DNA from: an uncultured Chloroflexia bacterium
Lineage (GTDB): Bacteria; Chloroflexota; Dehalococcoidia; DSTF01; JACRBR01
Length of the DNA stretch: 64,000 nucleotides
Reading direction: 5' to 3'
Assembly (NCBI GenBank): GCA_963843685.1
Contig: CAWJLO010000010.1
Coordinates: 390,933 to 454,932 of the forward strand
Shown one piece after another: positions 3,593 through 53,235 of the stretch (position 1 is its first letter; each line of letters opens with the position of its first letter). The position numbers and the translations under genes were made by a program. Below the pieces are notes generated by a model. That model did no database searches. It saw only the letters and a program-made list of their open reading frames with translations, and was not told the origin of the DNA.

Positions 3593-5253
3593 AGCTGGTG
3601 ACGGCGGCTCAGATGCACGACCTGGAGCAGGATGCGGTCGCCGCCGGGACGTCGCTCGACGAGCTGATGGAGCAGGCGGGGCTGGCGGTCGCGCAGGAGG
3701 CGTGGCTCAGCCTGGGCGTCGTGGCCGGACGGCGGATGCTCGTGCTATGCGGGCCGGGCAACAACGGCGGCGACGGCCTGGTAGCGGCGCGGCATCTCGC
3801 CGCGTGGGAGGGCGACGTCGTCGTCTACCTGACAGCGCCGCGAGACCCAGCGGACGCGAACATGGCCAAGGTGCGCGAGCTTGGCGTACCCGTATTCGCG
3901 GCGACGGAAGATACGGACGGCGCGGCGCTGGTGCGGGCACTGGACGGTGCCGAGCTCGTCATCGATGCGCTGCTCGGCACCGGGCGGAGCCGTCCGATCG
4001 AGGGCGTACTGGCGCAGATCCTGCAGCGGCTGCACGAAGCTGAACGACGAACTCGTCCACCGAAGATCGTGGCGGTCGACCTGCCGACGGGCGTCGACGC
4101 TGACTCCGGGCAGGCGGACCCGCTCGCTGTGCGGGCCGACATGACCGTCACGTTCGGGCTGGCGAAGGTGGGGTTGTACACACTTCCCGGATCGGGGTAC
4201 GCGGGCCGAGTGCAAGTTGTGGACATCGGCCTTCCAAAGGACTCTGAGCAGCGCGTGCCACTCGATCTGCTTGACACGTCATGGGTGCGCGCGCGGCTGC
4301 CGGAGCGACCGAAGTCCGGCAACAAGGGCACGTTCGGCAAGGTGCTGGTCGTGGCGGGATCGCGATCGTATGTCGGGGCGGCCCGGCTGGCGGCGGAGGC
4401 GTGTTACCGCGCAGGGGCCGGGCTGGTGACGGTCGCCTGCCCGGCGAGCGTGCAGGCGATGCTGGCGCCGGCGATTGCGGAAGCGACCTGGCTCCCGCTG
4501 GACGACGATGACGGTGCACTCGGCGCGGGCGCAGGGCGGGCGGTTCTCGAGGCGCTCCCCGGTTACGACGTGCTGCTCATCGGACCGGGACTGGGCCAAT
4601 CTCGGGGCGTGCGAGATGCGGTTGTGGGCATCGTGTCGTCGCTGCCGTCGACGCTGCGCGGCTGTGTGATCGATGCCGATGCGCTCAACGTGCTGGCCGA
4701 GGAATCGGGATGGCAAGGGCGCGTCGCTGTCGAGACCGTGCTCACGCCGCATCCGGGCGAGATGGCGCGGCTCTGCGCCACCACCGTCGCGGAGGTGCAG
4801 GACCACCGGCTGAGTATCGCGACCGACGGCGCAGCGACGTGGGGGCAGATAGTCGTGCTGAAGGGGGCGCACACGGTCGTCGCATCTCCCGACGGGAGGA
4901 GCGCGATCAGTCCGTTCGCGAATCCGCTGCTCGCGACGGCGGGGACGGGCGACGTCCTGGCGGGCACGATTGCGGGTCTGCTGGCGCAGGGCGCCCACGG
5001 GTTCGAGAGCGCGGGCTGCGGCGTGTACGTGCACGGAATGGCGGCGGAGGAACTAGGCGAGGAGCTGGGCGACCGCGGCCTCCTGGCCAGCGACCTGCTG
5101 CCGGCGCTCCCGCGGGCGATCCGCACGGTGCTGCACGGGCGGCCGATGCGTGCGCCCGGGGGCTTGCCGGGATTGGCGGAACTGGGCGGATTCCGAGGTG
5201 GCGGCCTGGGCGCGCTGGCGGAGCTCGGGGCGTTCGAGCAAAGCGACTCGTAA
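3589..5253 (+). CDS. nnr: Bifunctional NAD(P)H-hydrate repair enzyme Nnr (YjeF_N epimerase + ADP-dependent dehydratase)
   Basis: VKLVTAAQMHDLEQDAV...LCGPGNNGGDGLVAARHL (YjeF N-terminal domain), then GNKGTFGKVLVVAGSRSYVGAARLAAEA...GTGDVLAGTIAGL (carbohydrate-kinase-like domain). GTG at 3589, coupled to acpS. Confidence 0.85.
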   Translation: MKLVTAAQMHDLEQDAVAAGTSLDELMEQAGLAVAQEAWLSLGVVAGRRMLVLCGPGNNGGDGLVAARHLAAWEGDVVVYLTAPRDPADANMAKVRELGVPVFAATEDTDGAALVRALDGAELVIDALLGTGRSRPIEGVLAQILQRLHEAERRTRPPKIVAVDLPTGVDADSGQADPLAVRADMTVTFGLAKVGLYTLPGSGYAGRVQVVDIGLPKDSEQRVPLDLLDTSWVRARLPERPKSGNKGTFGKVLVVAGSRSYVGAARLAAEACYRAGAGLVTVACPASVQAMLAPAIAEATWLPLDDDDGALGAGAGRAVLEALPGYDVLLIGPGLGQSRGVRDAVVGIVSSLPSTLRGCVIDADALNVLAEESGWQGRVAVETVLTPHPGEMARLCATTVAEVQDHRLSIATDGAATWGQIVVLKGAHTVVASPDGRSAISPFANPLLATAGTGDVLAGTIAGLLAQGAHGFESAGCGVYVHGMAAEELGEELGDRGLLASDLLPALPRAIRTVLHGRPMRAPGGLPGLAELGGFRGGGLGALAELGAFEQSDS

Positions 5254-5306
5254 AGCCGGAGGCGCTTTACTTCTTCCACCGCGGCGATCTACGCTCAAAC
5301 GCGAAG

Positions 5307-6497
5307 ATGGAACACTTGGTCTACCTCGACAACGCCGCGACGACACCACTCCACCCGTCCGTGCTCGACGCGATGCTCCCCTACCTGACGACGTCGTACG
5401 GGAACCCTTCGGCGACCTACGGGCTGGCGCGGGCAGCGAACGATGCGATCCAGTCGAGCCGGCGCACGGTCGCCGAGATCGTCGGATGCCGGCCGACGGA
5501 GATCGTGTTCACGGGCGGTGGCACCGAGTCGATCAATACGGCGATCAAGGGCGTAGCGTTCCAGCAGCGAAAGGCACGCGCCGGCAACCACATCGTTACG
5601 TCAACTATCGAGCACCACGCGGTGCTGCACGCCTGCCAGTACCTGGAGCGCTTCGGCTTCGATGTGACGTACGTGCCGGTGGACGGGCTCGGCGTGGTGG
5701 ACCCCGAAGACGTGGCGCGCGCAGTCACGGACCAGACGGTGCTTGTCAGCGTCATGGCGGCGAACAACGAGGTCGGGTCGCTGCAGCCGGTCGCAGCGAT
5801 CGCGGCGGCGCTGCGCGAGCGCGCCGGCCAGTTGAGAAAGCGCATCCCGTTCCACACCGACGCGATCCAGGCGCCCAACTCGCTCCGGCTCGATGAGCTG
5901 ACCCGTGAGGTCGACCTGCTGAGCCTGGCGGCGCACAAGTTCCGCGGGCCGAAGGGCATGGGCGTGCTGTACGTGCGCAGAGGGGTGCCGTTCCTCGCGC
6001 AGCAGAACGGCGGCGGGCAGGAGCGGCAGCGCCGAGCGGGCACGGAGGACGTAGCGGGCATCGTCGGCACAGCGGCGGCGCTGCGGCTCACGCAGGGATC
6101 GCTGGAGGCTGACCGTGGACGGACGCACGAGCTGGCGACGCGCCTGCGTGACGGGATCCTGGCGCGGGTGCCGCGGAGCGAGCTGAACGGGCACGCCGAT
6201 GCGCGTCTGGCGAACAACGTTAGCGTCGCCTTCGACGGGGCCGACGCACGCTCGCTGCTCGACGGGCTGGACGCGGCGGGGATCGCGTGCAGTGCCGGGG
6301 CGGCCTGCGGGGCGACCACGCTCGAGCCGTCGCACGTGCTGCTGGCGATGGGGCTGCCGCTGGAGCGGGCGATCGCGACGCTGCGGTTCACGCTGGGGCA
6401 CGAGACGACGGACGGTGACATCGCTTACGTGCTGGAGAAGCTGCCCGCGATCGTGGAGGCGTCCCGAGCGGCACACCTGGTCGCCTCGCCCGGCTGA
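5307..6497 (+). CDS. Cysteine desulfurase (NifS/IscS family, PLP-dependent)
   Basis: MEHLVYLDNAATTPLHPSVLDAMLPYLTTSYGNPSATY... with SLAAHKFRGPKGMGVLYVRRG (PLP-Lys motif) and a C-terminal catalytic Cys loop (CSAGAACGA). ATG at 5307 in the frame of the 595-aa track ORF. Confidence 0.85.
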   Translation: MEHLVYLDNAATTPLHPSVLDAMLPYLTTSYGNPSATYGLARAANDAIQSSRRTVAEIVGCRPTEIVFTGGGTESINTAIKGVAFQQRKARAGNHIVTSTIEHHAVLHACQYLERFGFDVTYVPVDGLGVVDPEDVARAVTDQTVLVSVMAANNEVGSLQPVAAIAAALRERAGQLRKRIPFHTDAIQAPNSLRLDELTREVDLLSLAAHKFRGPKGMGVLYVRRGVPFLAQQNGGGQERQRRAGTEDVAGIVGTAAALRLTQGSLEADRGRTHELATRLRDGILARVPRSELNGHADARLANNVSVAFDGADARSLLDGLDAAGIACSAGAACGATTLEPSHVLLAMGLPLERAIATLRFTLGHETTDGDIAYVLEKLPAIVEASRAAHLVASPG

Positions 6498-7364: not shown

Positions 7365-8047
7365 CGTCGTTCGTGCGACGCATCCTCGGCCGGGACGCGG
7401 AACGCCGCGATGAGGGCGAGTACCGGGTACGTCTCGTGTTCGCGCTGGGCAACCCGGGGAGCGAGTACGCGGGGAACCGACGCAACGTGGGGTTCTGGGT
7501 GGCGAACCGGCTGGCGCGCAAGCACGGGATGGAGTTCTCGACGAAGACCGGGACGTACGCGCTCGCCGAAGGGGAGATCGGCGGGCAGCGGGTCGCGGTC
7601 GCGAAGACGCGCACGTTCAACAACGATAGCGGCACGGCGGTGATGGCGCTGATCCGGAAGCTCAAGCTCGACGACGCGCGAGAGCTGCTGACCGTGTGCG
7701 ACCACCTGGACCTGCCGGCCGGGAAGGTGCGCATCCGGCGGAAGGGCGGCGGGGGCGGCCAGAAGGGCATGGCGGACATCATCGCAAAGACGCACACGGA
7801 CGAGTTTCCGCGCGTGCGCATCGGCATCGGACGGCCGATGGTCGGCGGCGAGCCTTCGTGGGAGCCCGAGCACGTGGCGGCGTGGGTGCTGAGCGACCCC
7901 GACCCGGAGGAGCGCGCCGTGCTGGACGCCGCCGTGGAGCGCGCGGTTGCGGCGATTGAGTGCGCGATCACGGAGGGCATCGATGCGGCGATGAACCGCA
8001 TGAATCGAGACGATGGAGCGAACCCGGAGACGGAGGCGGGGAAGTGA
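7361..8047 (+). CDS. pth: Peptidyl-tRNA hydrolase Pth
   Basis: VRLVFALGNPGSEYAGNRRNVGFWVANRLA...RIGIGRP is the canonical Pth motif. The N-terminus may begin a little downstream of 7361. Confidence 0.85.
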   Translation: MTSFVRRILGRDAERRDEGEYRVRLVFALGNPGSEYAGNRRNVGFWVANRLARKHGMEFSTKTGTYALAEGEIGGQRVAVAKTRTFNNDSGTAVMALIRKLKLDDARELLTVCDHLDLPAGKVRIRRKGGGGGQKGMADIIAKTHTDEFPRVRIGIGRPMVGGEPSWEPEHVAAWVLSDPDPEERAVLDAAVERAVAAIECAITEGIDAAMNRMNRDDGANPETEAGK

Positions 8048-8241
8048 GCCGTGCGCGCCAGGCTGTGGCGACGGTGGCCGTGCTCGCGGCGCTGGTCGCG
8101 ATCTCGGCGCTGTTCAAGCGCGAGACCTGCTCGTGCAGCGGTGGGTTGCCATATTCGGCGATCGCGTTGTGGTGCAGTATCTTGGCGGCGGGAGCCGTCG
8201 GTGCATACGTTGCCTCAGGCATCATGCTGAAGCGCGACTGA
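8044..8241 (+). CDS. Small two-TM membrane protein (65 aa) with CSCSGG motif, translationally coupled to pth
   Basis: GTG at 8044 overlaps the pth TGA (GTGA). GGAGG lies 7-8 nt upstream. VSRARQAVATVAVLAALVAISALFKRETCSCSGGLPYSAIALWCSILAAGAVGAYVASGIMLKRD has two hydrophobic helices. Confidence 0.35.
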   Translation: MSRARQAVATVAVLAALVAISALFKRETCSCSGGLPYSAIALWCSILAAGAVGAYVASGIMLKRD

Positions 8242-8354
8242 GAATCGGCGAATTCCCGGCTGCGCGGGCGATGCGCCCGCTGGTACAATCCATATGCCAA
8301 GGGGCTGATCGGGCGATCAGCCCCCGATCGTGTTGTCCGCGAGAGCGGAGGCGC

Positions 8355-11300
8355 ATGGATCTTTCGGCACTGCTGCCGGTCGTCGACGAGGCGGTGGGAC
8401 TCGACCGCCTTCGCAGCCGCATGTCCGAGTCCGGGCGGCTTGTGCTTGGCGTCAGCGACGGCGCGAAGGCGGCGGTGCTCGCGGCGCTGGCGCGCGACGC
8501 GGCAAGGCCGATCCTCGTCATCGTGCCGAAGCCGCAACACGCGGACGCGCTCGTCGAGGAGCTGCAGGCGTGGCTGGGCGCGGACGGCCAGCGGCGCGTG
8601 CTCCACTTCCCGGAGCGAGACGCGCTGCCGTACGAGCGGCTGGACCCCGACCCGGACGACGTACGGATGCGGCTGCAGTGCCTGATCGCGCTCGCGGCGG
8701 GGAGCGACGCGATCGTCATAGCCTGCGCGGCCGCGATCTCACAGCGGACGCTGTCGCCGGACGAACTGGCGCGGACGACGATCACGGTCGCTCGTGGCGA
8801 GGAGTCGCAGCAACGCGAACTCCTGCAGGCACTGGCGACGGGCGGCTACGCCTTCGAGCCGCAGGTGACGGAGCCGGGCGAGGCGAGCCGGCGGGGTGGC
8901 ATCATCGACGTCTGGCCACCGTCCGAGGAGCTGCCGCTGCGGATCGAGCTGTTCGGCGACGACGTTGAGAGCATCCGCTCGTTCGACCCGGCGTCGCAGC
9001 GTTCGTCGGGGATGCGGGAAACGGCGACGATCGGTCCGGCACGCGAGCTGATCCCGGACCACGCGCGCGCGCAGCAACTCGCCGGCAAGATGCAGATCGG
9101 CAGCCTCCGCGGCGAGCAGCGCGATCGCTTCGAGTCGGACCAGCATGCGCTGAAGGAGGGTCGCCAGTTCGACGGCGACGCGTTCTACACGCCGTTCCTG
9201 GCGCCGGCGACGCTGCTGGCGCACCTGCCGGCAGACGCACTCGTCGTCGTCGATGAGCCGGCGGACGTGGCGGCAGTGCAGAAGGAGCACGACGAGCAGG
9301 CGCGCGAGGCGCGGCGCGACCTCGAGCAGCGCGGCGAGCTGCCGCACGGCATGCCGGACCCACACGCCGGATGGGAAGAGCTCGACGAGGCTATCGAGGC
9401 CAGGCGGCCGCGGCTGAACCTGTCGCGCTGGGCCACGGGCGACGCGGAGTCGCCCGAAGCCGGGGCGGCGATGCGTCTCCCATTCGGGCCGGTCGCGGCG
9501 TACGGCGGCCGGCTGCGCACGCTGGCCGACGAACTGAGCCGCATCCTACGCGGTGGCCAGCAGGTGGTCGTCGTGTCCACGCAGTCGAAGCGGCTTGCGG
9601 AGCTGCTGGAGGAGCACGACGTATTCGCTCGCGTAGCGGAGACACTGGCAGCGCCCGAGCTGGGGCACGGCGGCCTGACGGTCGTACACGGCTCGCTGCC
9701 GCACGGCTGGGCGATCGGCGGCGAAGGCGCGGGACTGACGCTGCTCACAGACTCGGAGGTCTTCGGCTTCAGCAAGCAGCGACGCCCTCCACCCCGGCGC
9801 GGGGCGTCCCGAGAGGCGTTCCTGTCCGACCTGGCGCCGGGCGAGTTCGTCGTGCACGTGGAGCACGGGATCGCGAAGTTCGCCGGGCTGGTGCACAAGG
9901 GCATCGAGGGGCAGGAGCGCGAGTACCTGGAGCTGCAGTACGCGGACGGCGACCGGCTCTTCGTTCCGACCGAGCAGGTCGACCGCGTGAGCCGGTACGT
10001 CGGGCCGAGCGAGCACCGGCCGACGCTGACGCGGCTGGGCTCGCAGGAGTGGCCGCGGGCGAAGGCGCGAGTTCGACGCGCCGTGCAGGAGCTGGCGGGC
10101 GAGTTGCTGCAGCTCTACGCCAACCGGCAGGTCGCGGCCGGCACCCCCTTCCCGCCCGACACGGGCTGGCAGGCGGAACTGGAAGCGTCGTTCCCTTATG
10201 TCGAGACCGGCGATCAGCAGACGGCCATCCGGGACGTCAAGCGTGACATGGAGGACGCCCGGCCGATGGACCGCCTGGTGTGTGGCGACGTCGGCTACGG
10301 CAAGACGGAGGTCGCGGTGCGCGCGGCGTTCAAGGCCGTGCTGGGCGGCTCGCAGGTGGCGGTGCTCGTGCCGACGACGGTGCTCGCGCAGCAGCACTAC
10401 AACACCTTCAGGCAGCGTCTGGCGGGTTTTCCGGTGAAGGTGGAGATGCTCTCGCGTTTCCGGAGCGACCGCGACCAGCGCGGTGTGGTAAGCGACGCGG
10501 CGGCCGGCAAGGTCGACGTCGTCATCGGGACGCACCGACTGTTGCAGAAGGACGTCTCGTTCAAGAACCTGGGGCTGGTGATCATCGACGAGGAGCAGCG
10601 CTTCGGCGTGGCGCACAAGGAGCGGCTGAAGAAGATGCGTAGCGAGGTCGACGTCCTGACGCTCACGGCGACGCCGATCCCGCGCACGCTGAACATGGCG
10701 CTCACGGGCATCCGCGACATGTCGACGATCGAGACGCCGCCGGAGGAGCGGCTGCCGATCAAGACGTACGTGACGGAGTTCGACGACCACCTGGTGCGGG
10801 AGGCGATCACGCGCGAGCTTGAGCGCGGCGGGCAGGTGTACTTCGTGCACAACCGCGTGCACAACATCGAGCTGGTGGCGCGGCAGCTCCGCGACATCGT
10901 GCCGGAAGCGGAGATCCTCATCGGGCACGGGCAGATGCACGAAGACATGCTCGAGAAGGTGATGCTGGACTTCACGGACGGCAAGGCCGACGTCCTGGTG
11001 TGCACGACGATCATCGAGTCCGGGCTCGACATCCCGAACGTGAACACGATCATCATCAACAACGCCGACAAGTTCGGGCTGGCGCAGCTCTACCAGCTGC
11101 GGGGCCGCGTCGGGCGCGGGGCGGCGCGCGCGTACGCGTACCTGCTGTACGAGAAGCACCGCGCGCTCAGCGAGGTTGCGCAGCGACGCCTGCAGACGAT
11201 CTTCGAGGCGACGGAACTGGGCGCGGGATTCCAGATCGCACTGCGGGATCTGGAGATCCGCGGCGCGGGCAACCTCCTGGGCGCCGAGCAGAGCGGTCAG

Positions 11301-12896: not shown

Positions 12897-13480
12897 GACA
12901 CCTCCCGGATGGAACCTTCGTACGCAAGCAAGAGACCGACGAGCGGCAACGCGAGCGTAACAGAGACCCTGGCGCCGACGTCACCGCCGCACACCCACCC
13001 CGACGCGGTGGGCGCAAGCCATCGCGCGATCGGGAATGCCACCGGACCGAGCCGAAGCGCGAAGCCGGCCTGCGCCATCTGGAGCCCGCCGTTCGAGACT
13101 GAAACGCGAAAGCGGAACTCGCATGGACCAAAGCGCTCCGCCAGGAGGCCGTTACCCACACGCCGTTGCTCACTGCGCAGCGGACGTGCGTTGAACGAGC
13201 GGACCCACAGCTCCGTCGCCTCGTACCGCCGAATGACCAGATCGACATGCGTTGCAGCGCTCTCCGGTGGGAAACGCAGAAGCCGGGCGAGAACTCGCGC
13301 CACGGCGTTCGATCCCTGCCGCACCGCGAAAACGCCGCGGGCGCGGGTCTCGCCGCTGCCGCAGTGCATGCCACGAACGGCGAAATGGAGGGTCTCGAGC
13401 GAACCGCGAGCCACCGAGGCGTAGAGGCTGGACGAGTCGGCGACGGGTACGTGCGCGACCTCCCGTGAAGACGCAATCAT
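12893..13480 (-). CDS. Conserved hypothetical protein (possibly DUF4166-like)
   Basis: 195 aa, globular, third gene of the TetR-led operon. ATGA overlaps. The family assignment is from memory only. Confidence 0.45.
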   Translation of the reverse strand: MIASSREVAHVPVADSSSLYASVARGSLETLHFAVRGMHCGSGETRARGVFAVRQGSNAVARVLARLLRFPPESAATHVDLVIRRYEATELWVRSFNARPLRSEQRRVGNGLLAERFGPCEFRFRVSVSNGGLQMAQAGFALRLGPVAFPIARWLAPTASGWVCGGDVGARVSVTLALPLVGLLLAYEGSIREVS

Positions 13481-14103
13481 CGTGCACCTCCGAGCGGAGC
13501 GAGAAACGGTTCAGCGAGCGACAGCAGGCGTTCGGCGCTGGCGAACAGCGCGTTCGGCCGGCTTCGATCGCCCTCCAGGTTCGAGAGCAGCTCCGTCCCG
13601 AGGTAGAGCGCGGCCATCGCGTAGGCGACGTCACCCGCCGGAATCATCGCTGCGAACGGCGAGCCGGCCAGTACATGCTCGATGGTCTCACGAGTGAAGG
13701 CGATCCACGGCTCGACCCGGCGCGCCACCTCGTGCCCGAGATCAGGAGACGCAGCGCCGGCCCCGACCATCTCGGCGAGCACCTTCACGTGGCCGCTCGC
13801 AAAGTCCTCCTGGTAGAGCGACCGAACGACGCCAAGCACGTCAGGGAGCGAATGCGCCGGGTCAAGACGCGCTCGATAGCTCGCCATGCGTTCTTCGCTG
13901 CTCCTGTCCAGCGCAGTGAGGAGGAGATTTTCGATGTCGCCGAAGTGGTAGAAGATGAGCGCCTGGTTGAACTTGCCAGCCGCGGCGATGGTTCGCGCGC
14001 TCGCGCCTGCGTACCCGTCCGAACGAAGCACGCTCAGTGCGGCATCGACGATTCGGGCCCTCGTGATCTGGGAACGGCCTGAGATGGCCATCTGGTCCTC
14101 CAT
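13477..14103 (-). CDS. TetR/AcrR family transcriptional regulator
   Basis: N-terminal HTH: TRARIVDAALSVLRSDGYAGASARTIAAAGKFNQALIFYHFGDIENLLLTAL. Confidence 0.8.
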   Translation of the reverse strand: MEDQMAISGRSQITRARIVDAALSVLRSDGYAGASARTIAAAGKFNQALIFYHFGDIENLLLTALDRSSEERMASYRARLDPAHSLPDVLGVVRSLYQEDFASGHVKVLAEMVGAGAASPDLGHEVARRVEPWIAFTRETIEHVLAGSPFAAMIPAGDVAYAMAALYLGTELLSNLEGDRSRPNALFASAERLLSLAEPFLAPLGGAR

Positions 14104-14232
14104 ATTTTGAGCGATCGCTCAAATTCAGTATCGGACCGATCGTCCGTGCAGTCAACCCCTGCCCGTCAATTCGTTGCGATCAGGTGGGTACCATGAGACG
14201 CCGATACCTAGGAGGAGCAGTGAGGCCCCGCC

Positions 14233-15198
14233 ATGACGATGATCTTCCGCCGGCCTTCGACGGCCGCCAGTCCTTCGCACGCCGAGGGGGTGGTGCGGCA
14301 CGGGTTCGCATCGTTCTACCGGGCGCCGGTGGTCGAGGACATGGACGACTGGCGCGCGGACGTCGGCTTCGTCGGCGTGCCCTTTGACGGCGCCACGAAC
14401 GACCGGCCGGGCGCGCGCTTCGGCCCCGCCGCAATCCGCGACGCGTCGACGCGCTACGAGCCGGACGAGGAGTGGCGGGGCTGGATCGACGCCGAGCGCG
14501 GCGTGCGGATCCTCGACGGCGTCTCGATGGCGGACGTCGGCGACGTTGACGTCCGCACCGTCGACTTGCTGCAGAACTTTGAGATCATCACGGAGGCGGC
14601 GCGCCTGGTGCGACGCAATTGCCGGGTGCCTGTGTTCGTCGGCGGCGACCACGCGATCACGTTTCCGATCATGCGGGCGTTCGACGATGGGCCGCTGACG
14701 CTCGTGCAGTTCGACGCGCACCAGGATTACACGGACGAGAAGTTTGGCGTACGATATTCGCACGACAACCACATGCGGCGCTCGAGCGAGCTGCCGCACG
14801 TGCGCCAGATCGTGAACGTCGGGCTGCGCGGCGTGCTGGAGCGAGCGGAGCCGTGGGAGGCGGCGCAACGCGACGGCGTGATCGTCGTACCGGCGGAGCG
14901 GATGGTGCGGGAAGGCGTGCCCGCGGCGCTGGCGGGCGTGCCGGGCGGCGGGCGCGCGTACGTGACGATCGACATCGACGTGCTGGACCCGTCTGGCGCA
15001 CCGGGGACGGGCTACCCGGAGCCGGGCGGCATCAACTACTACCAGCTCAAGGAGGCGCTGCGCCTCGTCGCCTCACGGTACGACGTCGTCGGCTTCGACG
15101 TGACGGAGGTCGATCCGGTGTACGACGCAGCGGGCGTGACGTCGCGGATCGCGGCGAAGCTGATGCTGGACCTTCTCGGCGCGATCTTCGAGCGTTAG
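14233..15198 (+). CDS. Agmatinase/arginase (ureohydrolase) family protein
   Basis: GGDHAITFPI...DAHQD...IDIDVLDPSGAPGTGYPEPGG are binuclear-Mn ureohydrolase motifs. 321 aa. Confidence 0.85.
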   Translation: MTMIFRRPSTAASPSHAEGVVRHGFASFYRAPVVEDMDDWRADVGFVGVPFDGATNDRPGARFGPAAIRDASTRYEPDEEWRGWIDAERGVRILDGVSMADVGDVDVRTVDLLQNFEIITEAARLVRRNCRVPVFVGGDHAITFPIMRAFDDGPLTLVQFDAHQDYTDEKFGVRYSHDNHMRRSSELPHVRQIVNVGLRGVLERAEPWEAAQRDGVIVVPAERMVREGVPAALAGVPGGGRAYVTIDIDVLDPSGAPGTGYPEPGGINYYQLKEALRLVASRYDVVGFDVTEVDPVYDAAGVTSRIAAKLMLDLLGAIFER

Positions 15199-22207: not shown

Positions 22208-24233
22208 CTAACGAACCGTGACCGTGCCGACGTTTCTGAGTTCACGCGACTGGCTTTGCGCGACTGCGGGATCGCCTTGCGAGTCGAAGACAGCAAGGCG
22301 GATCTGGTACGTGCCCGGAGCGATCGAGCGCGGGACGAGAACGAAGTAGGATTCGCGCACGAGATCACCAGGCTTCCACGCAGACGTGGTGAGCGCGCCC
22401 TCGCCGATCACGCGGGTCTGCGACCAGTCTGGGAACCCGCGCACGCTGGCGGCCTGTCCAGAGGCATCGAAGAAGAGCGTGGTCGCGGAAAGGTCATCGG
22501 ACAGGGGAGCGTCGGCGCGCCAGTAGTACGAGAACTCGGCAAGGGTGCCGCGCTCGACGGTCGACTGATCCTCCTCGAACCCGGCGAGCGTCACGCCCTG
22601 GGAGAAGGGCACGTCTTGCTCGGCGCCTGACGGCACGGCCGTCGCGCGCGGGTCCGGGGCCGTGGCGTAGAGCCTGTACAGCGTGCCCGTCATGGCGAGG
22701 TCGTCGCGATACGCGGGTTTCGGCAGCACATCGGTCAGCATCCGCTCGATGCCGTCCGTGAGCACGGGCTGGACGGAGAACGTCCGGCGGAGATCGGCGA
22801 GCGGCGTGCGCAGGCCCTGAGCGACGTACACCGGCCGGCCCGCCGCCTCCTGCTCACGGGCGAAGGCTGCGACGTCCTCCCCGGGCACCGAGAAGATCGG
22901 CGAGACGAGGACGTCGCGCCGCTGCCCTTCGACCATCTGTACGTACCAGAGCGGGCTCGCGGTCCAGGTGTCGGTAAGGACAACGGCGCGATCCGGGAGG
23001 TGTGCCAGCGTCTGCGCGGCGAAGTCATGCGCCGCGTAGTCGCTGCTTCTGTCGACGCGCGCGTGGTTCTTCGCGAGAAGCGCCAGCGGCAAGAGCGCGA
23101 GCAGCGAGCCGAGCGCGGCCGTACGCAGCCACGGCCGGACGCTCGAGGCATCGGCGCGGCGGACGACATCGATGATCCACGCGGCGCCCACGCCGACGAG
23201 CACGCAGAGGGCGAGGTAGCCGGGCGTGAGGTAGTTGTAGATGTTGTGGATGGAGTAGGCCTCGACGACGAGCGCGTCGAGGAACACCACCATCGCGAAA
23301 TAGGCGGCGACGGCGCGTTGGCGCCGCGCGCAGGCGACGAGGCCGAGGGCGGCGATCGCGAGGCCGGCCCACGTGAGGTCATATGAGGGGTACGACCAGA
23401 GCACGTTGATACGGTCCGCGAGGTCGAAGCGCCAGTAGGCGGAAGGGGTCTGTCCGTTCAGGAACATCGACCAGTAGGTGTGCCAGTTCGCCGGCTGCGC
23501 CCAGTTCAGCATTGGGTGCTGCGAGGCCCGGATCGGCAGGTAGATGTACACGCCGAGGCCGAGCACGAACATCGCAATCGCCGCGATTACGGTCCTCGGG
23601 CGCAGGCTACGCCAGCCCAGCAGCAGCAGCATCGCGGACGGCGGCGCCGTGAGGACGATGAGCCGGTGGTTACACATGCCCAGCCCGAATGCCAGGGCGG
23701 CCAACGCGAGCGACTGCGGCGACCGGTCGCGCCACCAGGCGAGCATGCAGCGGACGACGATGGCGGTGATCAGCAGGTTCAGACCGTAGGACGTCGCCCA
23801 GGTGGCGTTGGCCCAGACGGTCGATGCGAATGCGAGTGTGAGGGCGCCGATCACGGCGGCCACGGGCTCGTCGGTCAGGTCGTGAATCGTCGCCGCCACG
23901 ACGCCGGCAGCGGCCGCGGTGCACACGGCGGACATGAGGTTCACGCGATATGCGGTCGTGCCGACAGGGCAGAAACGTGAAGAGCTTCCCGAGGAGGATC
24001 AGCAGCGGATAGCCGGTGTTGTGGGCGATACCCAGCGTCGCGGAGGCCGTGGTGAACTCGCCCATGTCGTACCACATGACCGTCGGCGCGAGCGTCGTCA
24101 GATACACAGCGAACGCCGCGCCGCCAGCGCAGAAGGTGACGGCGATGGACAGCGCGCGATGGCTCAGGCGGACTCGGGGGAGCCGCGCAGACCAGGCAAG
24201 ACCCGGGGCGCGATGCGGCAGGTCAAGCTGCAT
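22208..24233 (-). CDS. DUF2723 / GT-C family (PMT/ArnT-like) membrane glycosyltransferase, interrupted by apparent +1 frameshift near 23960-23970
   Basis: The N-terminus (ALSIAVTFCAGGAAFAVYLTTLAPTVMWYDMGEFTTASATLGIAHNTGYPLLILLGKLFTFLP) lies in the frame of track ORF 23670..24302. The downstream reading PVGTTAYRVNLMSAVCTAAAAG... continues in the frame of ORF 22208..23944. About 11 TM helices plus a C-terminal soluble domain. Confidence 0.65.
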
Positions 24234-25323
24234 TGAGCGCGCTGCCGCCGAGCAGGCGGCCGAGCTCCTCGGGCGACCGCGAGAACGCCAGTGCGGTCTC
24301 ACGCGAGATCGTCTGATGGCGCACGCGATCCGCCAGCTCCTGATCGAGGGTGCGCATGCCGATCGCGGCGCCGGTCGCCATGACGGTGGGGATCTGGTGC
24401 GTCTTCGCTTCCCGGATGAGGTTGCGGACGGCGGACGTGCCGAGCATCACCTCGCACACGGCGAGACGGCCGTCCCCGGCGACGTTGGGCACGAGCACCT
24501 GCGAGATGATGGCCTCGATCACCATCGAGAGCTGGAGGCGGATCTGCGGCTGCTGGTAGCTGGGAAAGGCGTCGACGATGCGGTCGATCGTCTGCGGTGC
24601 GTCGGGCGTGTGGAGGGTCGCGAAGACGAGGTGGCCGGTCTCGGCGGCGGTGATAGCCGACGCCATCGTCTCCAGGTCGCGCATCTCGCCCACGAGTATG
24701 ACGTCGGGGTCCTGCCGGAGGACGTGCCGCAGCGCTTCGGCGAACGACCGAGTGTCGATGCCGACCTCGCGCTGCTTGATCACGCTGGTGTGATTGGCAT
24801 GGAGGAACTCGATTGGGTCTTCTACGGTGACGATGTGGCGCGCATCGCGGCGGTTGATCCGGTCGATCATCGACGCCAGTGTCGTCGACTTACCGCTGCC
24901 CGTCGGGCCGGTAACCAGTACGAGGCCCCGCGGGAGTTGCGTCAGCCGCTCGCAGACCTGCGGCAGGCCAAGTTCCTCCATCGAAAGCACGGTGTCGTTG
25001 ACGCGACGAAAGGCGAAGTAGAGATGGCCGCGCTCGTACGCGACGTTGGCACGGAAGCGGCCGACGCCGTCGACGTGGAGCGCCTTGTCCAACTCACGCG
25101 CGCTCTCCAGCCGGGCGCGCTCGTCAGGGCTGGTGACGAAGTCCAGGATGTGTGAAAGGTCGCCGTCGTCGAGGGGATCCACGCCGGCGATCGGCGCCAG
25201 GCCGCCGTGAACCCGGCAGATGGGCGGTGTGCCGAACGAGAGGTGCAGGTCGGATGCGTCGCGCGCGGCCATCTCGCGCAACAGTTCGACGATCGAAACC
25301 GCGCCGTCTGCTCCGTCGATCAC
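24223..25323 (-). CDS. pilT: Type IV pilus retraction ATPase PilT
   Basis: IVELLREMAARDASDLHL..., Walker A (VLVTGPTGSGKSTTLASMI), the Asp box and the His box, and AIRNLIRE. Probable GTG start at 25323. Confidence 0.85.
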   Translation of the reverse strand: MIDGADGAVSIVELLREMAARDASDLHLSFGTPPICRVHGGLAPIAGVDPLDDGDLSHILDFVTSPDERARLESARELDKALHVDGVGRFRANVAYERGHLYFAFRRVNDTVLSMEELGLPQVCERLTQLPRGLVLVTGPTGSGKSTTLASMIDRINRRDARHIVTVEDPIEFLHANHTSVIKQREVGIDTRSFAEALRHVLRQDPDVILVGEMRDLETMASAITAAETGHLVFATLHTPDAPQTIDRIVDAFPSYQQPQIRLQLSMVIEAIISQVLVPNVAGDGRLAVCEVMLGTSAVRNLIREAKTHQIPTVMATGAAIGMRTLDQELADRVRHQTISRETALAFSRSPEELGRLLGGSALNAA

Positions 25324-25679
25324 GACGCAACTCCTCGTCTCAGTGCGATGCCGCAGACAACGATGAGGCCCTCGCTCGCGGCCGCGATCGCGGTTGCGGC
25401 GGCCGGCGGAAATGTCATGAACGCGACCGCGAACACGGCGGCCGAAGCCGCCTCCACGGTAGGTGCCCGGAGGCCAATCGATGCGTGGCAGGTCGCGCAC
25501 CGCCCTCGGAGGAGCAGATAGCTGAGGATCGGCACGAGCTCCGACGGTCGGAGCACGCGGCCGCAGGCGTCGCAGCAGGAGCGCCCGTTGAGTGATCGGC
25601 GCGCCGGCACACGATCGATGGCCGCATTGGCGAAGCTTCCGAAGGCGAGGCCGAAGAGCGCCGCATAGACAGCCATCAT
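25320..25679 (-). CDS. Prepilin peptidase N-terminal domain-only protein (A24 N-terminal Zn-binding domain; no peptidase domain)
   Basis: 119 aa: LFGLAFGSFANAAIDRVP...RSCCDACGRVL...LRGRCATCHASIG, i.e. two CxxC pairs as in the PilD N-terminal domain. The ORF ends 3 nt before the pilT start, so there is no room for the catalytic TM domain. Confidence 0.6.
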   Translation of the reverse strand: MMAVYAALFGLAFGSFANAAIDRVPARRSLNGRSCCDACGRVLRPSELVPILSYLLLRGRCATCHASIGLRAPTVEAASAAVFAVAFMTFPPAAATAIAAASEGLIVVCGIALRRGVAS

Positions 25680-26257
25680 CGCTCGACCTCCAGCGTGAAC
25701 GCGCCGCCCCGGGCTGCGTCAGGAGTAAAGGAGATCATGCGCGCTGAGGAGAAGCTCTCGACCGAGACGAGCCTGTCAGCGTAAGCGATGGCATCGAGCG
25801 GGCCGGCGGCGACGCCGTCAACCTTGAAGCCGCCGTCGGTGCCGGCGATGGTCGTGAGGCGCGCGCCTGGTGGCAACAATCCGGGCGCCCAGAGGCGGGC
25901 GAGGTCGTCGTCGAGCGGCCGGACGCCGCCCTGGATCAGCGCTCGTTGCCGCTCGATAGCGGTGATCTTGGTCGTGAGGTCGGCCAGCTCGATCCGCTGG
26001 GCGCGCTGGCTTGCGACGTCCAGTTGCAGGCCGTGCAACGACGCCTCCGCCTCGCTGGCCTGGGTCGCGGCGTCGTCGGCGCGTTGCTGCGCGCGTTCGG
26101 CGCGCACGCCGAACGGGATCAACGCGACGAGCAGGAGCACGAACACGGCTCCGGCCACGACCGCCCATGCGGGCGCTTCCCGCGGGCGCTGGTCGCGCGG
26201 CAGCAGGTTCAGATCGACAATGAGGCCCGAACGGCCGCGAAGATCCAGGGTGCTCAT
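25676..26257 (-). CDS. pilN: Type IV pilus assembly protein PilN-like
   Basis: N-terminal IVDLNLLPRDQR (the INLLP motif), a single TM, a coiled coil, then a C-terminal domain. ATGA overlap with pilM. Confidence 0.6.
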   Translation of the reverse strand: MSTLDLRGRSGLIVDLNLLPRDQRPREAPAWAVVAGAVFVLLLVALIPFGVRAERAQQRADDAATQASEAEASLHGLQLDVASQRAQRIELADLTTKITAIERQRALIQGGVRPLDDDLARLWAPGLLPPGARLTTIAGTDGGFKVDGVAAGPLDAIAYADRLVSVESFSSARMISFTPDAARGGAFTLEVER

Positions 26258-27147
26258 GCCGCGAGCTCCTTGAGCGCCAGACCGACATTCGCGGCGAAAC
26301 GCGCTGTGTCGGAATCCGGGCGGATGGGGATGCGCAGATGCGGCATCGTCACTTCGTGACCGGTCTGGGCAGCAATCTCCACTGAGAAGAGCGCTTGCGG
26401 CGCCGCGCCGCCGACAAGCGAGATCGGAAAGGCGTCGACCTCCACCTCGTCCCGGTGAGAGTCGCGATAGAACTTGAGTGTGCGCACGAGCTCTTCGGTG
26501 AGCTGCTGCCCCCAAGCGGGGTCGTCGACGGACGCGGACATGCCTATGTAGCGGACGATGGCGGGGACGCCGCTCCGGAAGATGGCGAGTTCGATCTCCT
26601 CGCTCTCCAGGTGGGCGATGATGCAGTCCGGCTCGCCGACGGCGCGCGCGGCGGCGATGACGCGCAGGTCGGCCGCGACAGGGGTCAGGCGGGCCGCACG
26701 CAGCGCCGCGATGTGCGAGTCGAGCACGTCGCGGGCGACGCCGATGACGAAGACGCGCACCTTGCCCTCGTGCTCCGTCGTGCGGGTCCACGAAACGTAC
26801 GCGTTGTCGGCGAGCATGGGCATCTCGCGGCGGATCTCGCGCTCGGCCATCTCCGTGAACTGCTTGCCGCGCAGAGCGGGCAGCTCCAGCGTGCGAAAGA
26901 CGGAGCGCTGCGCAGGCAGGGCCGCGACGACGCGCATCCGGCGCCGGCCAGGGAAGCCGGGCGCGGCCCGCAGCGCCGCGCCCGCTGCCGCGGGATCGGT
27001 GATCACGCCGTCAACTACGAAGTGCGGCGGCAGGGCCACCGCACCCACGGAAGACACGCGTCCGGGACGCCCGAGCGTCCAGCGCGCTTCCCCCTCGTGG
27101 ACGGCGACGGTGAGGACTGGCTGGCGCAGCAGCGCGCGGATGTTCAT
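26254..27147 (-). CDS. pilM: Type IV pilus assembly protein PilM-like (actin-like ATPase fold, short form)
   Basis: 297 aa with a glycine-rich actin-fold segment (LVGGAAP) and the typical operon context upstream of pilN. Confidence 0.65.
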   Translation of the reverse strand: MNIRALLRQPVLTVAVHEGEARWTLGRPGRVSSVGAVALPPHFVVDGVITDPAAAGAALRAAPGFPGRRRMRVVAALPAQRSVFRTLELPALRGKQFTEMAEREIRREMPMLADNAYVSWTRTTEHEGKVRVFVIGVARDVLDSHIAALRAARLTPVAADLRVIAAARAVGEPDCIIAHLESEEIELAIFRSGVPAIVRYIGMSASVDDPAWGQQLTEELVRTLKFYRDSHRDEVEVDAFPISLVGGAAPQALFSVEIAAQTGHEVTMPHLRIPIRPDSDTARFAANVGLALKELAA

Positions 27148-27788
27148 GGCCGGACCCCCGGTGTGCTGGCCGCGGCGACCGCCGTCGGCGTGGCCGCTTC
27201 GCTGTAGGCCCTGAACGACAGCTCCGCCTGCGCGAGCCCGGCGTCCGTCACGTTCATCGAGACCAGCAACGGGAACATGGCGGGCTCGGTCTTCCGCATG
27301 TCCATGAGATACGCGGCGACCTGGACGGGCGATCCGCTGACCGACACGGTCAGCGCTTGCACGTCGTAAGTGACGTCCCCGATCCGCGCCGACGCCGGAG
27401 CCACGCGCGTGATCCCACGCACGTCAAGCCCGGCCGCGTCCGCGTGTAGCACGAGGAGCGCGGTCGCGGCATCGGACGCTGGATCGACGTCCGGTGTGAG
27501 CGGCTCCGCCTGCCAGGCGGCGTACTCGGCGCGGGCCCACTTGAGCTGATCGGCCAGATTCTCCGATGCACCCGGGGGCAACGCCAGGAGCTGCTGCGCG
27601 TCGGCGGTGCGCTGCTGCGCGTCGCGCTCGTCGCGCTGTGCGTTGTGCGCCGCGAGGAACGTGGACGTATAGGCGATGGCGAGCACGGCAGCGGCAAGAC
27701 CAACGAGCACGTGCGGCGGGATGTGCACCGAACGGGGAGCGCCAGCCAGGGCGCGTCGCCAGCCCTTTCGTGTCAGTTCAACTGCCAC
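27144..27788 (-). CDS. PilO-like bitopic membrane protein
   Basis: Short cytoplasmic N-terminus, one TM (VLVGLAAAVLAIAYTSTFLAA), a coiled-coil region, then a C-terminal domain. Position in the operon is consistent with pilO. Confidence 0.45.
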   Translation of the reverse strand: MAVELTRKGWRRALAGAPRSVHIPPHVLVGLAAAVLAIAYTSTFLAAHNAQRDERDAQQRTADAQQLLALPPGASENLADQLKWARAEYAAWQAEPLTPDVDPASDAATALLVLHADAAGLDVRGITRVAPASARIGDVTYDVQALTVSVSGSPVQVAAYLMDMRKTEPAMFPLLVSMNVTDAGLAQAELSFRAYSEAATPTAVAAASTPGVRP

Positions 27789-28540
27789 GACGCCACCTTC
27801 AAGCCGCTATACCCCGCCACAAGACGCGCCACGGAGCTGCGGCTACCCACGGTCGACGCCACCTCGTAGGTGGCGGCCGGGACGCTCAACGTGATCGTGC
27901 CGGTCGTCGCGACGTCCGTTTCGATCACGAGCTTGTACGTGCCCGCCGAGGCGAGCGTGAAATCCGCCTGGTAAGGAGAGGAGGCAAAGGGCGGCGCCAG
28001 AGGCCCGGAAGGACAGCTCGCCACGCCGGGGAGCAGTGTCGCGCGCACCTGGCCCGACGATGTCGTGATGCGAGCGGAGAGCGTGCCGGCGTCTGACGCC
28101 TGCACGTCGTAGCATTCGAGGAGCGCTCCGCTGTTCCACACGGGGGTCTGCGCCTCCACCGCACCTGCACCGGCCACGAATCTGACCTGGGTGGCCGGGA
28201 ACGCGGCTCCGTTCACCGTGGCGGGCGGCAACGGTGAGAAAGCCGTGATTGGCTCAAAGCTGGTGTCGGAGGTGAGCAGGGGATTCGATATGAGGAGATA
28301 CCCTGACCACTCGATTCCCGCATCCATGCTGTAGCGCTCCAGCGCCCTGATGCCGACCTGATTGGTGTAGCGGGAGTCTGTGCTGGCCCCGGTCAGGAGC
28401 GGCGTGACGAGGAGCGCGCCGACAGCGAGCGCGGCGATGGCGAGCGGCAGCGCCTGCCCCCGCGCGTCCCGCAGCGCCTCCAGACGCCGTCGCCAGCTCT
28501 CTACCGCCGTCATCCGCGTCACTGGCCTCCTCATCTCCAC
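27773..28540 (-). CDS. Hypothetical membrane-anchored protein within pilus operon
   Basis: N-terminal hydrophobic segment LPLAIAALAVGALLVTPLLT with no Glu at +5. About 250 aa. Confidence 0.4.
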   Translation of the reverse strand: MEMRRPVTRMTAVESWRRRLEALRDARGQALPLAIAALAVGALLVTPLLTGASTDSRYTNQVGIRALERYSMDAGIEWSGYLLISNPLLTSDTSFEPITAFSPLPPATVNGAAFPATQVRFVAGAGAVEAQTPVWNSGALLECYDVQASDAGTLSARITTSSGQVRATLLPGVASCPSGPLAPPFASSPYQADFTLASAGTYKLVIETDVATTGTITLSVPAATYEVASTVGSRSSVARLVAGYSGLKVASWQLN

Positions 28541-40323: not shown

Positions 40324-41352
40324 TTAGCCCAACACGAGCTCCGCGATCATGCGCAGGGCCGGCGGAGGACCGCCGACAAGCAGGGTCGTGGCGACTGTCT
40401 TCTTCCACTCGGCCAGTTCGTCTCTGATCTTGCCGGCGGGCCCGATCAGCGCGACATCTTCAACGAGGCTGGTGGGCACCGCGGCCATCGCATCGCGCGG
40501 CTTGCCGGCGAGGTAGAGCTCCTGGATCTTCTGGCATTCGCTCTCGTAGCCGAGGCGGACAAAGACGTCGTAGTGGAAGTTTTGCGTGCGGGCGCCCATA
40601 CCGCCGATGTACAGCGCAAGCGTGGGCCGCATCATGTCGGCGGCGGCCTCGACATCGTCGTTGACAATGATCGAGACGGCGGCCGGAACCTCGAAGTCGC
40701 TGAGCGTGCGGCGGGCGCCGGGCCGCGCGAAGCCCTCGGCCAGGGCGTTGCGGTAGAAGGCGTCGCTCTTCGGCGAGAAGAACACGGGCATCCAGCCATC
40801 GGCGATCTCGGCGGCCAACGCGACGTTCTTCGGCCCTTCCGCGCCGAGATAGATAGGGATGTCCGGCCTCAGCGGGTGGACGATCGACTTCAGTGGCTTG
40901 CCGAGGCCTGTGCCACCCCGATGTGGCACCTGATACTGCTTGCCAGCGAATTCGAGCGGCTCCTTGCGCGCGACAATGCGCCGGATGATCTCGACGTATT
41001 CGCGCGTGCGCTCGAGCGGACGCGGATACGGCTGGCCGTACCAACCCTCGACAACCTGCGGACCCGACGCGCCGAGTCCGAGTATGAAACGACCGCCGGA
41101 GAGGTGATCGAGGGTGATCGCCGCCATCGCCATCGCTGCCGGCGTGCGCGCGGAGATCTGCGCGATCGACGTGCCGAGCTTGACGCGGGAAGTGCGGCTG
41201 CCCCACCAGGCGAGCGGCGTCAGGGCGTCCGAGCCGTAAGCCTCGGCCGTCCAGATCGAGTCGAAGCCGAGGTCCTCCGCCATCGCGATCGTGTCGTCGA
41301 TAGCGGCCGGCGGCCCGGCGGTCCAGTAGCCGATCGCGAGGCCGAGCTTCAC
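40324..41352 (-). CDS. LLM-class F420-dependent oxidoreductase (luciferase-like monooxygenase family)
   Basis: MKLGLAIGYWTAGPPAA...GRFILGLGASGPQVVEGWYG is typical of the F420-dependent LLM subgroup. GTG start. Confidence 0.8.
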   Translation of the reverse strand: MKLGLAIGYWTAGPPAAIDDTIAMAEDLGFDSIWTAEAYGSDALTPLAWWGSRTSRVKLGTSIAQISARTPAAMAMAAITLDHLSGGRFILGLGASGPQVVEGWYGQPYPRPLERTREYVEIIRRIVARKEPLEFAGKQYQVPHRGGTGLGKPLKSIVHPLRPDIPIYLGAEGPKNVALAAEIADGWMPVFFSPKSDAFYRNALAEGFARPGARRTLSDFEVPAAVSIIVNDDVEAAADMMRPTLALYIGGMGARTQNFHYDVFVRLGYESECQKIQELYLAGKPRDAMAAVPTSLVEDVALIGPAGKIRDELAEWKKTVATTLLVGGPPPALRMIAELVLG

Positions 41353-41356
41353 GACG

Positions 41357-42482
41357 CTAGCCCTTCACAGCGACGTCGAGCGTCGCCGACATGCGCTCGA
41401 CCGTCGCGACGTAGTCCTCCACTATGGAGTAGATGATCTCGCGGGCGGGCCGAGCGGACTTCATGCTGCCGACGATCTGCCCCACCGGCGTACCCACGAG
41501 CTCCCGAGCGCCGGACTGGTCGCTGCCGCAGTAGCGGTGCATGCGGCTCTGCGCCTCCGCCACGACCATGAACTGCAGCGGCATCGGGAGCGCGCCGGGG
41601 GAGTCGGGGCCGTCCCACGCGTCCGTCCAGGGCGTGCGGAGTTGGCGTGCAGGCTTGCCGCTCATGGAACGCGAACGCACGGTGTCGCGCGAGGTGGCGG
41701 AGAAGAGTTTCTCCTGGACGACGGGGTGCGTGTCGGACTCGGCGGCGGTGAGCCAGATCGAGCCCGTCCACACACCTTCGGCCCCGAGCGCGAGCGCAGC
41801 GGCCGCCTGCCGCCCGCTGCCGATGCCGCCGGCCGCGAGCACGGGGCGCGGCGCGACGGCGGCGACCACTTCCGGGATCAGCACCATCGACGTCACCTCG
41901 CCGGTGTGACCGCCGGCCTCGTAGCCCGACGCGACGATGATATCCGTGCCGGCAGCGACCTGCTGTTGCGCCTGGTGGGCGCTGCCGACGAGCGCGGCCA
42001 CCTTCACGCCGCGATCGTGCGCCTTCTCGATGACGTCCGACGGCGGCGCGCCGAGCGCGTTCGCCAGCAGGCGGATTCGGGTGCGATAGCGCGATGTCAA
42101 CCTGCGTGCGCGCCTGGTCGTGCGTCCATGCGAGGAGTCCGGCCGCGGCGGGGACGTCCGGTGGCAGCGGCGGCACGTTGAAGCGCCGGAGCGTATCCTC
42201 CACGAACTTACGGTGCTGCTCCGGGATCATCTTCTCGAAGTCGTCGGGCGCGGCGGCGCTGACGGACGACGCCGGCATGACGACGTCCACGCCGTACGGC
42301 TTGCCGTCGACGTGCTCGTCGATCCATTTCAGCTCGATCTCGAGCTGGTCGGTCGAGAAGGCGAGCGCGCCGAGCACGCCCATGCCGCCCGCGCGACTGA
42401 CGGCGGCGACGACGTCGCGGCAATGACTGAACGCGAAGATGGGGAACTCAATGCCGAACTCGTCGCAGATGCGTGTGTGCAT
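41357..42482 (-). CDS. Nitronate monooxygenase / 2-nitropropane dioxygenase (NMO) family protein, apparent +1 frameshift near 42080-42095
   Basis: The N-terminal part (MHTRICDEFGIEFPIFAFSHCRDVVAAVSRAGGMGVLG...QARTQVDIALS) is in the frame of track ORF 41349..42482. The downstream part (RTRIRLLANALGAPPSDVIEKAHDRGVKVAALVGSAHQAQQQVAAGTDIIVASGYEAGGHTG...) is in the frame of ORF 41357..42100. Strong RBS GAGGAGG upstream. Confidence 0.75.
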
Positions 42483-42492
42483 ATCGGCCTCC

Positions 42493-43707: not shown

Positions 43708-43738
43708 GGTGTGTTCTCCTGTCCGGGGTATAGAGCGA

Positions 43739-44932: not shown

Positions 44933-44960
44933 CGTTTCGATCCGTTCTCCCGTGTCAGCG

Positions 44961-45767: not shown

Positions 45768-45771
45768 GCGA

Positions 45772-47406: not shown

Positions 47407-47420
47407 GTCCCCTCCTCCCG

Positions 47421-50585: not shown

Positions 50586-50595
50586 CCCTGCGCCC

Positions 50596-51441: not shown

Positions 51442-51444
51442 GGG

Positions 51445-52473: not shown

Positions 52474-52488
52474 GGCTCTGCTCCTGCG

Positions 52489-53208: not shown

Positions 53209-53235
53209 GACGTTGGGTGGGGTGGGTGAAGGGCC

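Follow-up and report, generated by a model that had tools for sequence, protein, structure and literature searches.

Introduction

Glycosylation of pilins affects phage resistance, adhesion, and filament properties in other bacteria. Here, we describe a gene that may carry out such a modification in an uncultured member of the Chloroflexota, found in a 64,000-nucleotide stretch of a metagenome-assembled genome (MAG; GenBank assembly GCA_963843685.1, contig CAWJLO010000010.1, positions 390,933 to 454,932 of the forward strand), which we refer to as the window and number from its first letter. The gene encodes a glycosyltransferase of the TMEM260 family (GT in what follows) and stands at the end of a type IV pilus operon on the minus strand. 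We propose, with a probability of roughly 0.6, that GT is an accessory enzyme of the Chloroflexota type IV pilus that acts as a polyprenyl-phosphate-sugar-dependent O-glycosyltransferase for pilins, a proposal that draws on homology and gene order.

Human TMEM260 is a protein O-mannosyltransferase for the IPT domains of plexins, cMET, and RON (PDB 9RQL/9RQM/9RQN). The protein O-mannosyltransferases of fungi and actinobacteria (PMT/Pmt; GT39) have the GT-C fold in common with GT, use polyprenyl-phosphate-mannose as the donor, and O-glycosylate Ser/Thr-rich (PT-rich) exported regions; unlike GT, they are broad-spectrum enzymes and are not pilus-linked. ArnT, the lipid A aminoarabinose transferase, is like GT at the level of the fold only (13-14% identity); its acceptor is a lipid, and it lacks a homologous periplasmic domain.

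Among enzymes that modify pilins, the closest functional analogy to GT is TfpW of Pseudomonas aeruginosa, a GT-C enzyme encoded beside pilA that serves as a pilin D-arabinofuranosyl transferase and whose loss abolishes Ser/Thr O-glycosylation of the pilin (10.1101/2020.04.19.049825). TfpW, which we compared by description only, differs from GT in having a TPR C-terminal domain, a DDX motif, and limited similarity to Emb arabinosyltransferases, and it belongs to a diderm proteobacterium. TfpO/PilO and PglL, which are of the Wzy_C type, are likewise accessory enzymes that glycosylate type IV pilins, with tfpO directly downstream of pilA; they transfer preassembled oligosaccharides from undecaprenyl pyrophosphate and are unrelated to GT in fold and family. 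In the Chloroflexota, an archaellin carries putative O-glycans on two Thr residues, for which the paper that describes them names no responsible enzyme (PMC12488501). In the literature that we searched, bacterial TMEM260/DUF2723 members appear only as "distant homologs in bacteria" with no function assigned, and we found no paper that ties the family to pilins or characterizes a bacterial TMEM260 homologue. A pilin-modifying accessory glycosyltransferase is a known kind of enzyme; what would be new here is that, in monoderm Chloroflexota, the enzyme comes from the TMEM260 family and has a beta-sandwich as its acceptor module.

GT belongs to the TMEM260 family

A preliminary description of this DNA, made from the letters alone, had placed a DUF2723-type gene at 22208-24233, and the listing of open reading frames (ORFs) puts it at exactly these coordinates, reading on the minus strand from an ATG at 24233-24231 to a TAG stop at 22210-22208. 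A frame plot of G+C at third codon positions (GC3) gives a minus-strand coding signal across the whole of 22208-24233. As assembled, the gene sits in two frames (24233-23967 and 23965-22208), and removal of T23966 yields a protein of 674 amino acids (aa) that is colinear, without gaps, with three intact 674-aa metagenome relatives (P0001, P0003, and P0004; 83-84% identity). The source record apparently annotates the 575-aa downstream piece only (P0002, 100% identical, 969-kb contig). The parts of the gene are as follows.

23967..24233, minus strand: 5' part, codons 1-89, with the cytoplasmic N-terminus, the first transmembrane helix (TM1), and the first outer loop (D56, E59, H71)
24068-24066, minus strand: codon of D56
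24023-24021, minus strand: codon of H71
23966, minus strand: extra T that breaks the frame (net +1), absent from three relatives
22208..23965, minus strand: 3' part, codons 90-674 and the stop, with TM2-TM11, the Rossmann-like domain, and the C-terminal beta-sandwich
22972-22970, minus strand: codon of the invariant D421, in the Rossmann-like domain

In a Pfam scan, the repaired protein matched PF11028 (TMEM260-like, formerly DUF2723) over residues 56-204 with an E value of 1.7e-31 and 109.8 bits against a cutoff of 24.2. Unlike the PMT enzymes, it scored below threshold for PMT_2 (23.4 bits, cutoff 26.1), and the same scan gave no PMT, MIR, Wzy_C, or TPR match; an NCBIfam scan returned no family. 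A profile built from 18 GT homologues of 38-100% identity (A1) matched the human TMEM260 chains in the PDB entries above at an E value of 1.8e-39, with profile positions 36-449 corresponding to residues 33-462 of 9rql_A, a stretch that takes in the entire 11-helix membrane domain and the first part of the Rossmann-like luminal domain. By homology, GT is a bacterial member of the TMEM260 GT-C family. The preliminary description had called it a PMT/ArnT-like GT-C enzyme (DUF2723), and of this label the GT-C and TMEM260/DUF2723 parts hold, while GT is neither a PMT (GT39) nor an ArnT.

Human D52 and H67, which form the sugar-recognition motif and are both essential (PMC10214176; bioRxiv 10.64898/2026.03.17.711096), align with D56 and H71, and both are invariant among the 18 homologues. 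The first outer loop holds the acidic residues D56 and E59 that are looked for in a multi-pass GT-C enzyme. Another invariant residue, D421, lies just after the first strand of the alpha/beta domain, where HMMER sets it one column off human D441, which likewise follows the first strand of its Rossmann-like domain; D421 is the probable, although not proven, counterpart of this catalytic base.

An AlphaFold2 (AF2) model of GT (pLDDT 89.6, pTM 0.88) predicts the same topology as that of human TMEM260, with the N-terminus inside, 11 helices, and the catalytic side outside the cytoplasm. The helices are followed by the alpha/beta domain and then by an eight-stranded beta-sandwich (~512-673). Foldseek searches of the PDB matched GT with STT3, ArnT, PglB, ALG9/12, AftA, DPY19, and Pmt4 at a probability of 1.0, and the best fold matches of the C-terminal domain were the carbohydrate-binding domain (CBD) of Wzt (8dky), NPC2, and RbmA. 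When 1.84 billion cluster representatives (50% identity clusters) were searched, 27,483 of them matched the profile at an E value of at most 1e-3. Only a handful of these match over the full length, most covering only ~25-480; since most of the profile matches stop at about position 480, the C-terminal domain marks a small subfamily.

GT is linked to pilus genes across two Chloroflexota classes

We searched 46 GT-anchored loci, 5 obtained by exact protein look-up and 41 from species-representative genomes, with the pilus proteins of the window; the set includes three duplicated pairs (L002 and L008, L003 and L015, and L004 and L022). Wherever GT was at least 48% identical and enough upstream DNA was present, pilT lay directly upstream on the same strand (33 of 33 loci, 30 of them distinct), and one further locus in this identity range has only 571 nucleotides (nt) of upstream DNA. 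The genes occur in three arrangements. Loci with GT of at least 57% identity are of the window type, pilA-pilB-pilC-...-pilT-GT, while those of a 48-51% clade read pilC-...-pilT-GT-pilA-pilB, which places GT inside the cluster and directly before pilA. In the third arrangement, seen in 7 of 10 loci with 36-40% identity that are labelled Anaerolineae, GT is convergent with ...pilT-pilA. In L042, the end of pilA and the stop of GT are 60 nt apart; a pilA-like gene lies directly upstream of GT in L030, and pilA is convergent and just downstream of GT in L024. The only GT loci that had no pilus genes within 10 kb were L005 (39%) and those of the 32% partial paralogues L045 and L046.

That this linkage has outlasted both rearrangement and a switch of orientation, over two classes, strongly argues for a functional tie between GT and the pilus. 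Synteny between DUF2723 and type IV pilus genes in relatives was the test that the preliminary description had set beforehand, and it is conserved. The same description had argued from the O-mannosylation of PT-rich linkers in actinobacteria, a premise that falls away: the source is a Chloroflexota (Dehalococcoidia-like) MAG, and the named relatives are Chloroflexota MAGs labelled Dehalococcoidia, Chloroflexia, or Anaerolineae, with the exception of one locus labelled Thermoanaerobaculia.

The reverse search started from 80 metagenome loci found by PilM alignment, 23 of which were informative (PilM and PilT both present, with at least ~1.5 kb beyond). Since 17 of the 23 carry GT and six do not, GT is a frequent accessory gene rather than a part of the core machinery, a pattern that is as expected for a modifying enzyme. 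Two of the loci that lack GT encode other candidate enzymes near pilA. In L081, a 751-aa Wzy_C and TPR protein is encoded directly after pilA (3978-6233, plus strand), and in L105, an 839-aa PF10131 "PTPS_related" membrane protein is encoded ~1 kb from pilA (7567-10086, minus strand). These single cases look like replacement by other glycosylation enzymes, which may be alternative pilin-modifying enzymes. A third locus that lacks GT, L075, has a heliorhodopsin gene just downstream of pilT (13302-14387, minus strand).

The linkage also bears on whether GT might instead be a housekeeping enzyme of general scope that O-mannosylates many secreted proteins, as actinobacterial Pmt does, its place after pilT being a lineage-specific accident. 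The TMEM260-like family is indeed very large and occurs in diverse contexts, the 39% homologue and the 32% paralogues mentioned above are not pilus-linked, and PT-rich linkers are common in secreted proteins. However, the association with the pilus persists over two Chloroflexota classes and three rearrangements, including the switch to a convergent orientation, and no more than a small subset of the family has the whole architecture, C-terminal domain included. We therefore give very little weight to a housekeeping role.

Separately, the 48-51% clade has a trio of genes 0.7-4 kb downstream of pilB that encode a PMT_2 protein (a second GT-C enzyme), a GtrA-GT2 fusion of the type that synthesizes polyprenyl-phosphate sugars, and a GDPD protein, which we saw in L004 (15081-18618) and also in L019, L023, L036, and L040. 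This trio could be a donor-supply module; it occurs in close relatives only, and we do not use it as evidence.

The pilus operon of the window

The operon that ends with GT has the order pilA-pilB-pilC-122-aa minor pilin-giant minor pilin-u255-u214-pilM-PilN-like-119-aa-pilT-GT. Its genes other than GT are listed below, in order of position.

24223..25323, minus strand: pilT, retraction ATPase, 366 aa, PF00437, from GTG at 25323 to TGA at 24223
25320..25679, minus strand: 119-aa protein with PF06750 (prepilin peptidase N-terminal Cys-rich domain) only
25676..26257, minus strand: PilN-like bitopic protein, 193 aa, no Pfam match, conserved in the cluster
26254..27147, minus strand: pilM, PF11104
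27144..27788, minus strand: u214, conserved cluster protein, no Pfam match
27773..28540, minus strand: u255, conserved cluster protein, no Pfam match
28543..31600, minus strand: giant minor pilin, prepilin-type N-terminus G/FGLVE, extra T at 30147/30146
31597..31965, minus strand: 122-aa minor pilin or pseudopilin, N-terminus G/VALVE
31962..33203, minus strand: pilC, PF00482 T2SSF
33214..34914, minus strand: pilB, assembly ATPase, MshEN and T2SSE
34969..35313, minus strand: pilA, candidate major pilin, 114 aa, N-terminus MLKRLNSEAG/FTLTELL, PF07963 N_methyl

From pilC to GT, successive genes overlap by 4-16 nt, the single exception being a 2-nt gap between the giant pilin gene and u255. The preliminary description was right that GT lies on the strand of pilT and downstream of it, but the start that it gave, 8 nt after the pilT stop, was wrong: the ATG sits 11 nt inside pilT (ATGCAGCTTGA), and relatives L001-L003 have the same 11-nt overlap. 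The overlap makes co-translation of GT with pilT probable, GT being the final member of a series of overlapping genes that starts with pilC. Scans for promoters and terminators around the pilT/GT junction found no promoter-like or terminator-like site between the two genes, and a similar scan around pilA gave nothing useful. On the other side of GT, 9 nt separate its stop from the end of a convergent gene for an acyl-CoA dehydrogenase.

The 119-aa PF06750 gene, between the PilN-like gene and pilT, lacks an A24 peptidase domain. A stand-alone PF06750 gene (111-120 aa) is kept in most related clusters, including those of the Anaerolineae type, and is missing in L003, L012, L014, and L016. Either the peptidase that cleaves the prepilins must be encoded elsewhere, or the 119-aa protein must have a role of its own.

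Candidate acceptors and proposed mechanism

By homology to TMEM260, the eleven transmembrane helices of GT would bind a polyprenyl-phosphate sugar on the outer side of the cytoplasmic membrane. GT differs from the human enzyme in that the carrier would be a bacterial polyprenyl phosphate rather than dolichyl phosphate and in being encoded in a type IV pilus operon. The sugar would be held by D56 and H71 of the first outer loop, and a Ser/Thr hydroxyl would be activated by D421 of the extracytoplasmic Rossmann-like domain, acting as the base. In place of the TPR "fingers" of human TMEM260, GT has the C-terminal beta-sandwich, which may recruit the acceptor. The most likely acceptors would be pilins that have not yet been assembled and are still anchored in the membrane.

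Foremost among the candidates is PilA, the small major pilin, with a cluster of Thr residues after helix alpha-1 (window sequence NATTTAAITVATSDMTSS). PilA orthologues of all three arrangements align well and share this cluster, in which two columns are at least 90% Ser or Thr, as well as another conserved Thr-rich stretch, GTYTVDTTG. A single-sequence AF2 model of PilA was poor (pLDDT 68, pTM 0.35) and was not used.

The second candidate, alone or in addition, is the giant minor pilin. When repaired, this protein has ~1,200 aa, with three PA14 domains split by PT-rich linkers and a C-terminal region of ~480 aa that is Ser/Thr-rich and has no Pfam match. Its orthologues range from roughly 270 to 1300 aa from stop to stop (gene calls, 566-833 aa) and vary in domain content (PA14, DUF7483), which is as expected for a fast-evolving tip adhesin. 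PT/S-rich linkers were found in every orthologue that we examined. Gene order favours PilA over these linkers as the acceptor, and both could be true. The earlier suggestion of a candidate pilin O-glycosylation enzyme stands on its synteny, the conserved catalytic residues, and the adjacency to pilA, while the linkers of the giant pilin, which had been singled out as the substrate, are neither the sole nor the best candidate.

GT might also be active and pilus-linked but act on something other than a pilin, such as an envelope polymer, a lipid, or another secreted protein, for instance by helping the pilus cross the monoderm wall or by building a pilus-associated polysaccharide. In favour of this alternative, the GT-C fold includes modifiers of lipids and polysaccharides (Foldseek matched ArnT, AftA, and Emb, among others), the beta-sandwich has a carbohydrate-binding domain as its best structural match, the domain by which TMEM260 engages its acceptor peptide is missing, and some related clusters do without GT. 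We nevertheless consider it improbable, as the nearest relative of known function is a protein O-mannosyltransferase whose protein-directed catalytic base appears to be conserved, and GT adjoins pilA in two or three independent arrangements. In addition, the slot after pilA in L081 is filled by a protein with the Wzy_C-TPR architecture of known pilin O-oligosaccharyltransferases.

Several observations weigh against a role for GT in pilin glycosylation. The TPR domain with which human TMEM260 binds its sequon and reads its acceptor is absent, and the AF2 model has the beta-sandwich in its place; a domain that resembles the Wzt CBD in the model would suit a glycan acceptor as well. Human donor-loop residues R264/Y267 and R355 of TMH10 have no clear aligned equivalents, as they fall in poorly aligned or inserted regions, so that the donor sugar is not inferable from the alignment; conserved Y266, W267, and R274 are possible, unproven counterparts. 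Among the window ORFs that were scanned, there was no polyprenyl-phosphate-sugar synthase of the GT2/GtrA type. GT is not universal, being missing from the vicinity of the pilus genes in L057, L074, L075, L081, L105, and L121. The Thr-Thr pair of PilA is weakly associated with GT, both columns being Ser/Thr in ~27 of 28 GT-linked pilins compared to 3 of 5 pilins of loci that lack GT, a trend that comes from only five GT-less loci and that we do not rely on. Finally, if the frame break in the gene is real, this copy of GT is inactive.

We see about even odds that the clade of TMEM260 homologues with a beta-sandwich for the TPR domain is a third, previously unrecognized class of dedicated type IV pilin O-glycosyltransferases, beside the Wzy_C-type TfpO/PglL and TfpW. 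Such enzymes would transfer a sugar from a polyprenyl phosphate donor to the Thr cluster of PilA, and possibly to the PT linkers of the giant pilin, in monoderm Chloroflexota. A subfamily with so firm a tie to pilus and pilin genes provides a concrete substrate hypothesis for a bacterial TMEM260 homologue and, if the hypothesis is true, it would be the first function assigned to any prokaryotic member of the family that holds the human disease gene TMEM260. The subfamily would then also be a candidate for the unexplained O-glycosylation on other Chloroflexota type IV filaments, and a compact bacterial relative with a different acceptor module could help sort out the ancestral parts of the TMEM260 mechanism.

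The frame break in GT

The single-base insertion that had been reported near 23966 is exact. The junction in GT reads ...TTT CTG CCC T GTC GGC ACG..., and a nucleotide alignment with three relatives places one extra base in the window, T23966 (CTGCCC-T-GTCGGC compared to CTC CCC GTC GGC). At least four genes in the 64 kb are split between frames, all with a net change of +1. The three breaks outside GT are as follows.

30147/30146, minus strand: extra T in the giant minor pilin gene
between 42103 and 42226: break in a nitronate monooxygenase gene
between 17297 and 17421: break in the gene of a DUF7065/DUF7064 protein

For the two breaks whose position is known to the nucleotide, the insertion is a T that immediately precedes the dinucleotide GT. 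Four breaks of the same sign within 64 kb suggest systematic insertions in the assembly. With the net +1 break of GT repeated in three unrelated genes of the window, we favour an assembly error over a pseudogene. We therefore think it likely that the frame break at 23966 is an assembly artefact, and the source organism probably has an intact GT gene.

If the break were real, GT would be a pseudogene in a decaying pilus locus, and there would be no glycosylation in this organism. Of the four broken genes, two (GT and the giant pilin gene) share an operon, and the source record annotates nothing but the truncated product. On the other hand, the other two broken genes are metabolic and unrelated to the pilus, and the shared sign of the breaks points to a technical bias of a systematic kind. 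The extra base aside, GT is colinear with its relatives and free of other lesions, with every invariant residue in place, and GC3 remains high on both sides of the break. The 969-kb contig suggests a long-read assembly, and a related locus from the "MFD" MAG series (L044), which we take to be long-read assemblies, also has a split pilB and a split pilT. A decayed gene is, on this balance, unlikely. Programmed frameshifting was considered and rejected, since the relatives encode the same amino acids across the site in one frame and since three unrelated genes have a break of the same type.

Other genes of the window

Immediately before pilA, in the same orientation, is a MacB-like pair that encodes a 1,092-aa FtsX-type permease and an ABC ATPase (35537-39429, minus strand). 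Beyond it lies a long block of lipid/steroid-type catabolic genes (40324-53235, minus strand) that resembles a cluster for the degradation of steroids or sterol side chains. The block includes genes for a luciferase-like monooxygenase, a P450, an acyl-CoA dehydrogenase, an enoyl-CoA hydratase, and an AMP-ligase, together with thiolase-like proteins, a ChsH2-type OB-fold protein, an amidohydrolase, and a KshA-like Rieske oxygenase.

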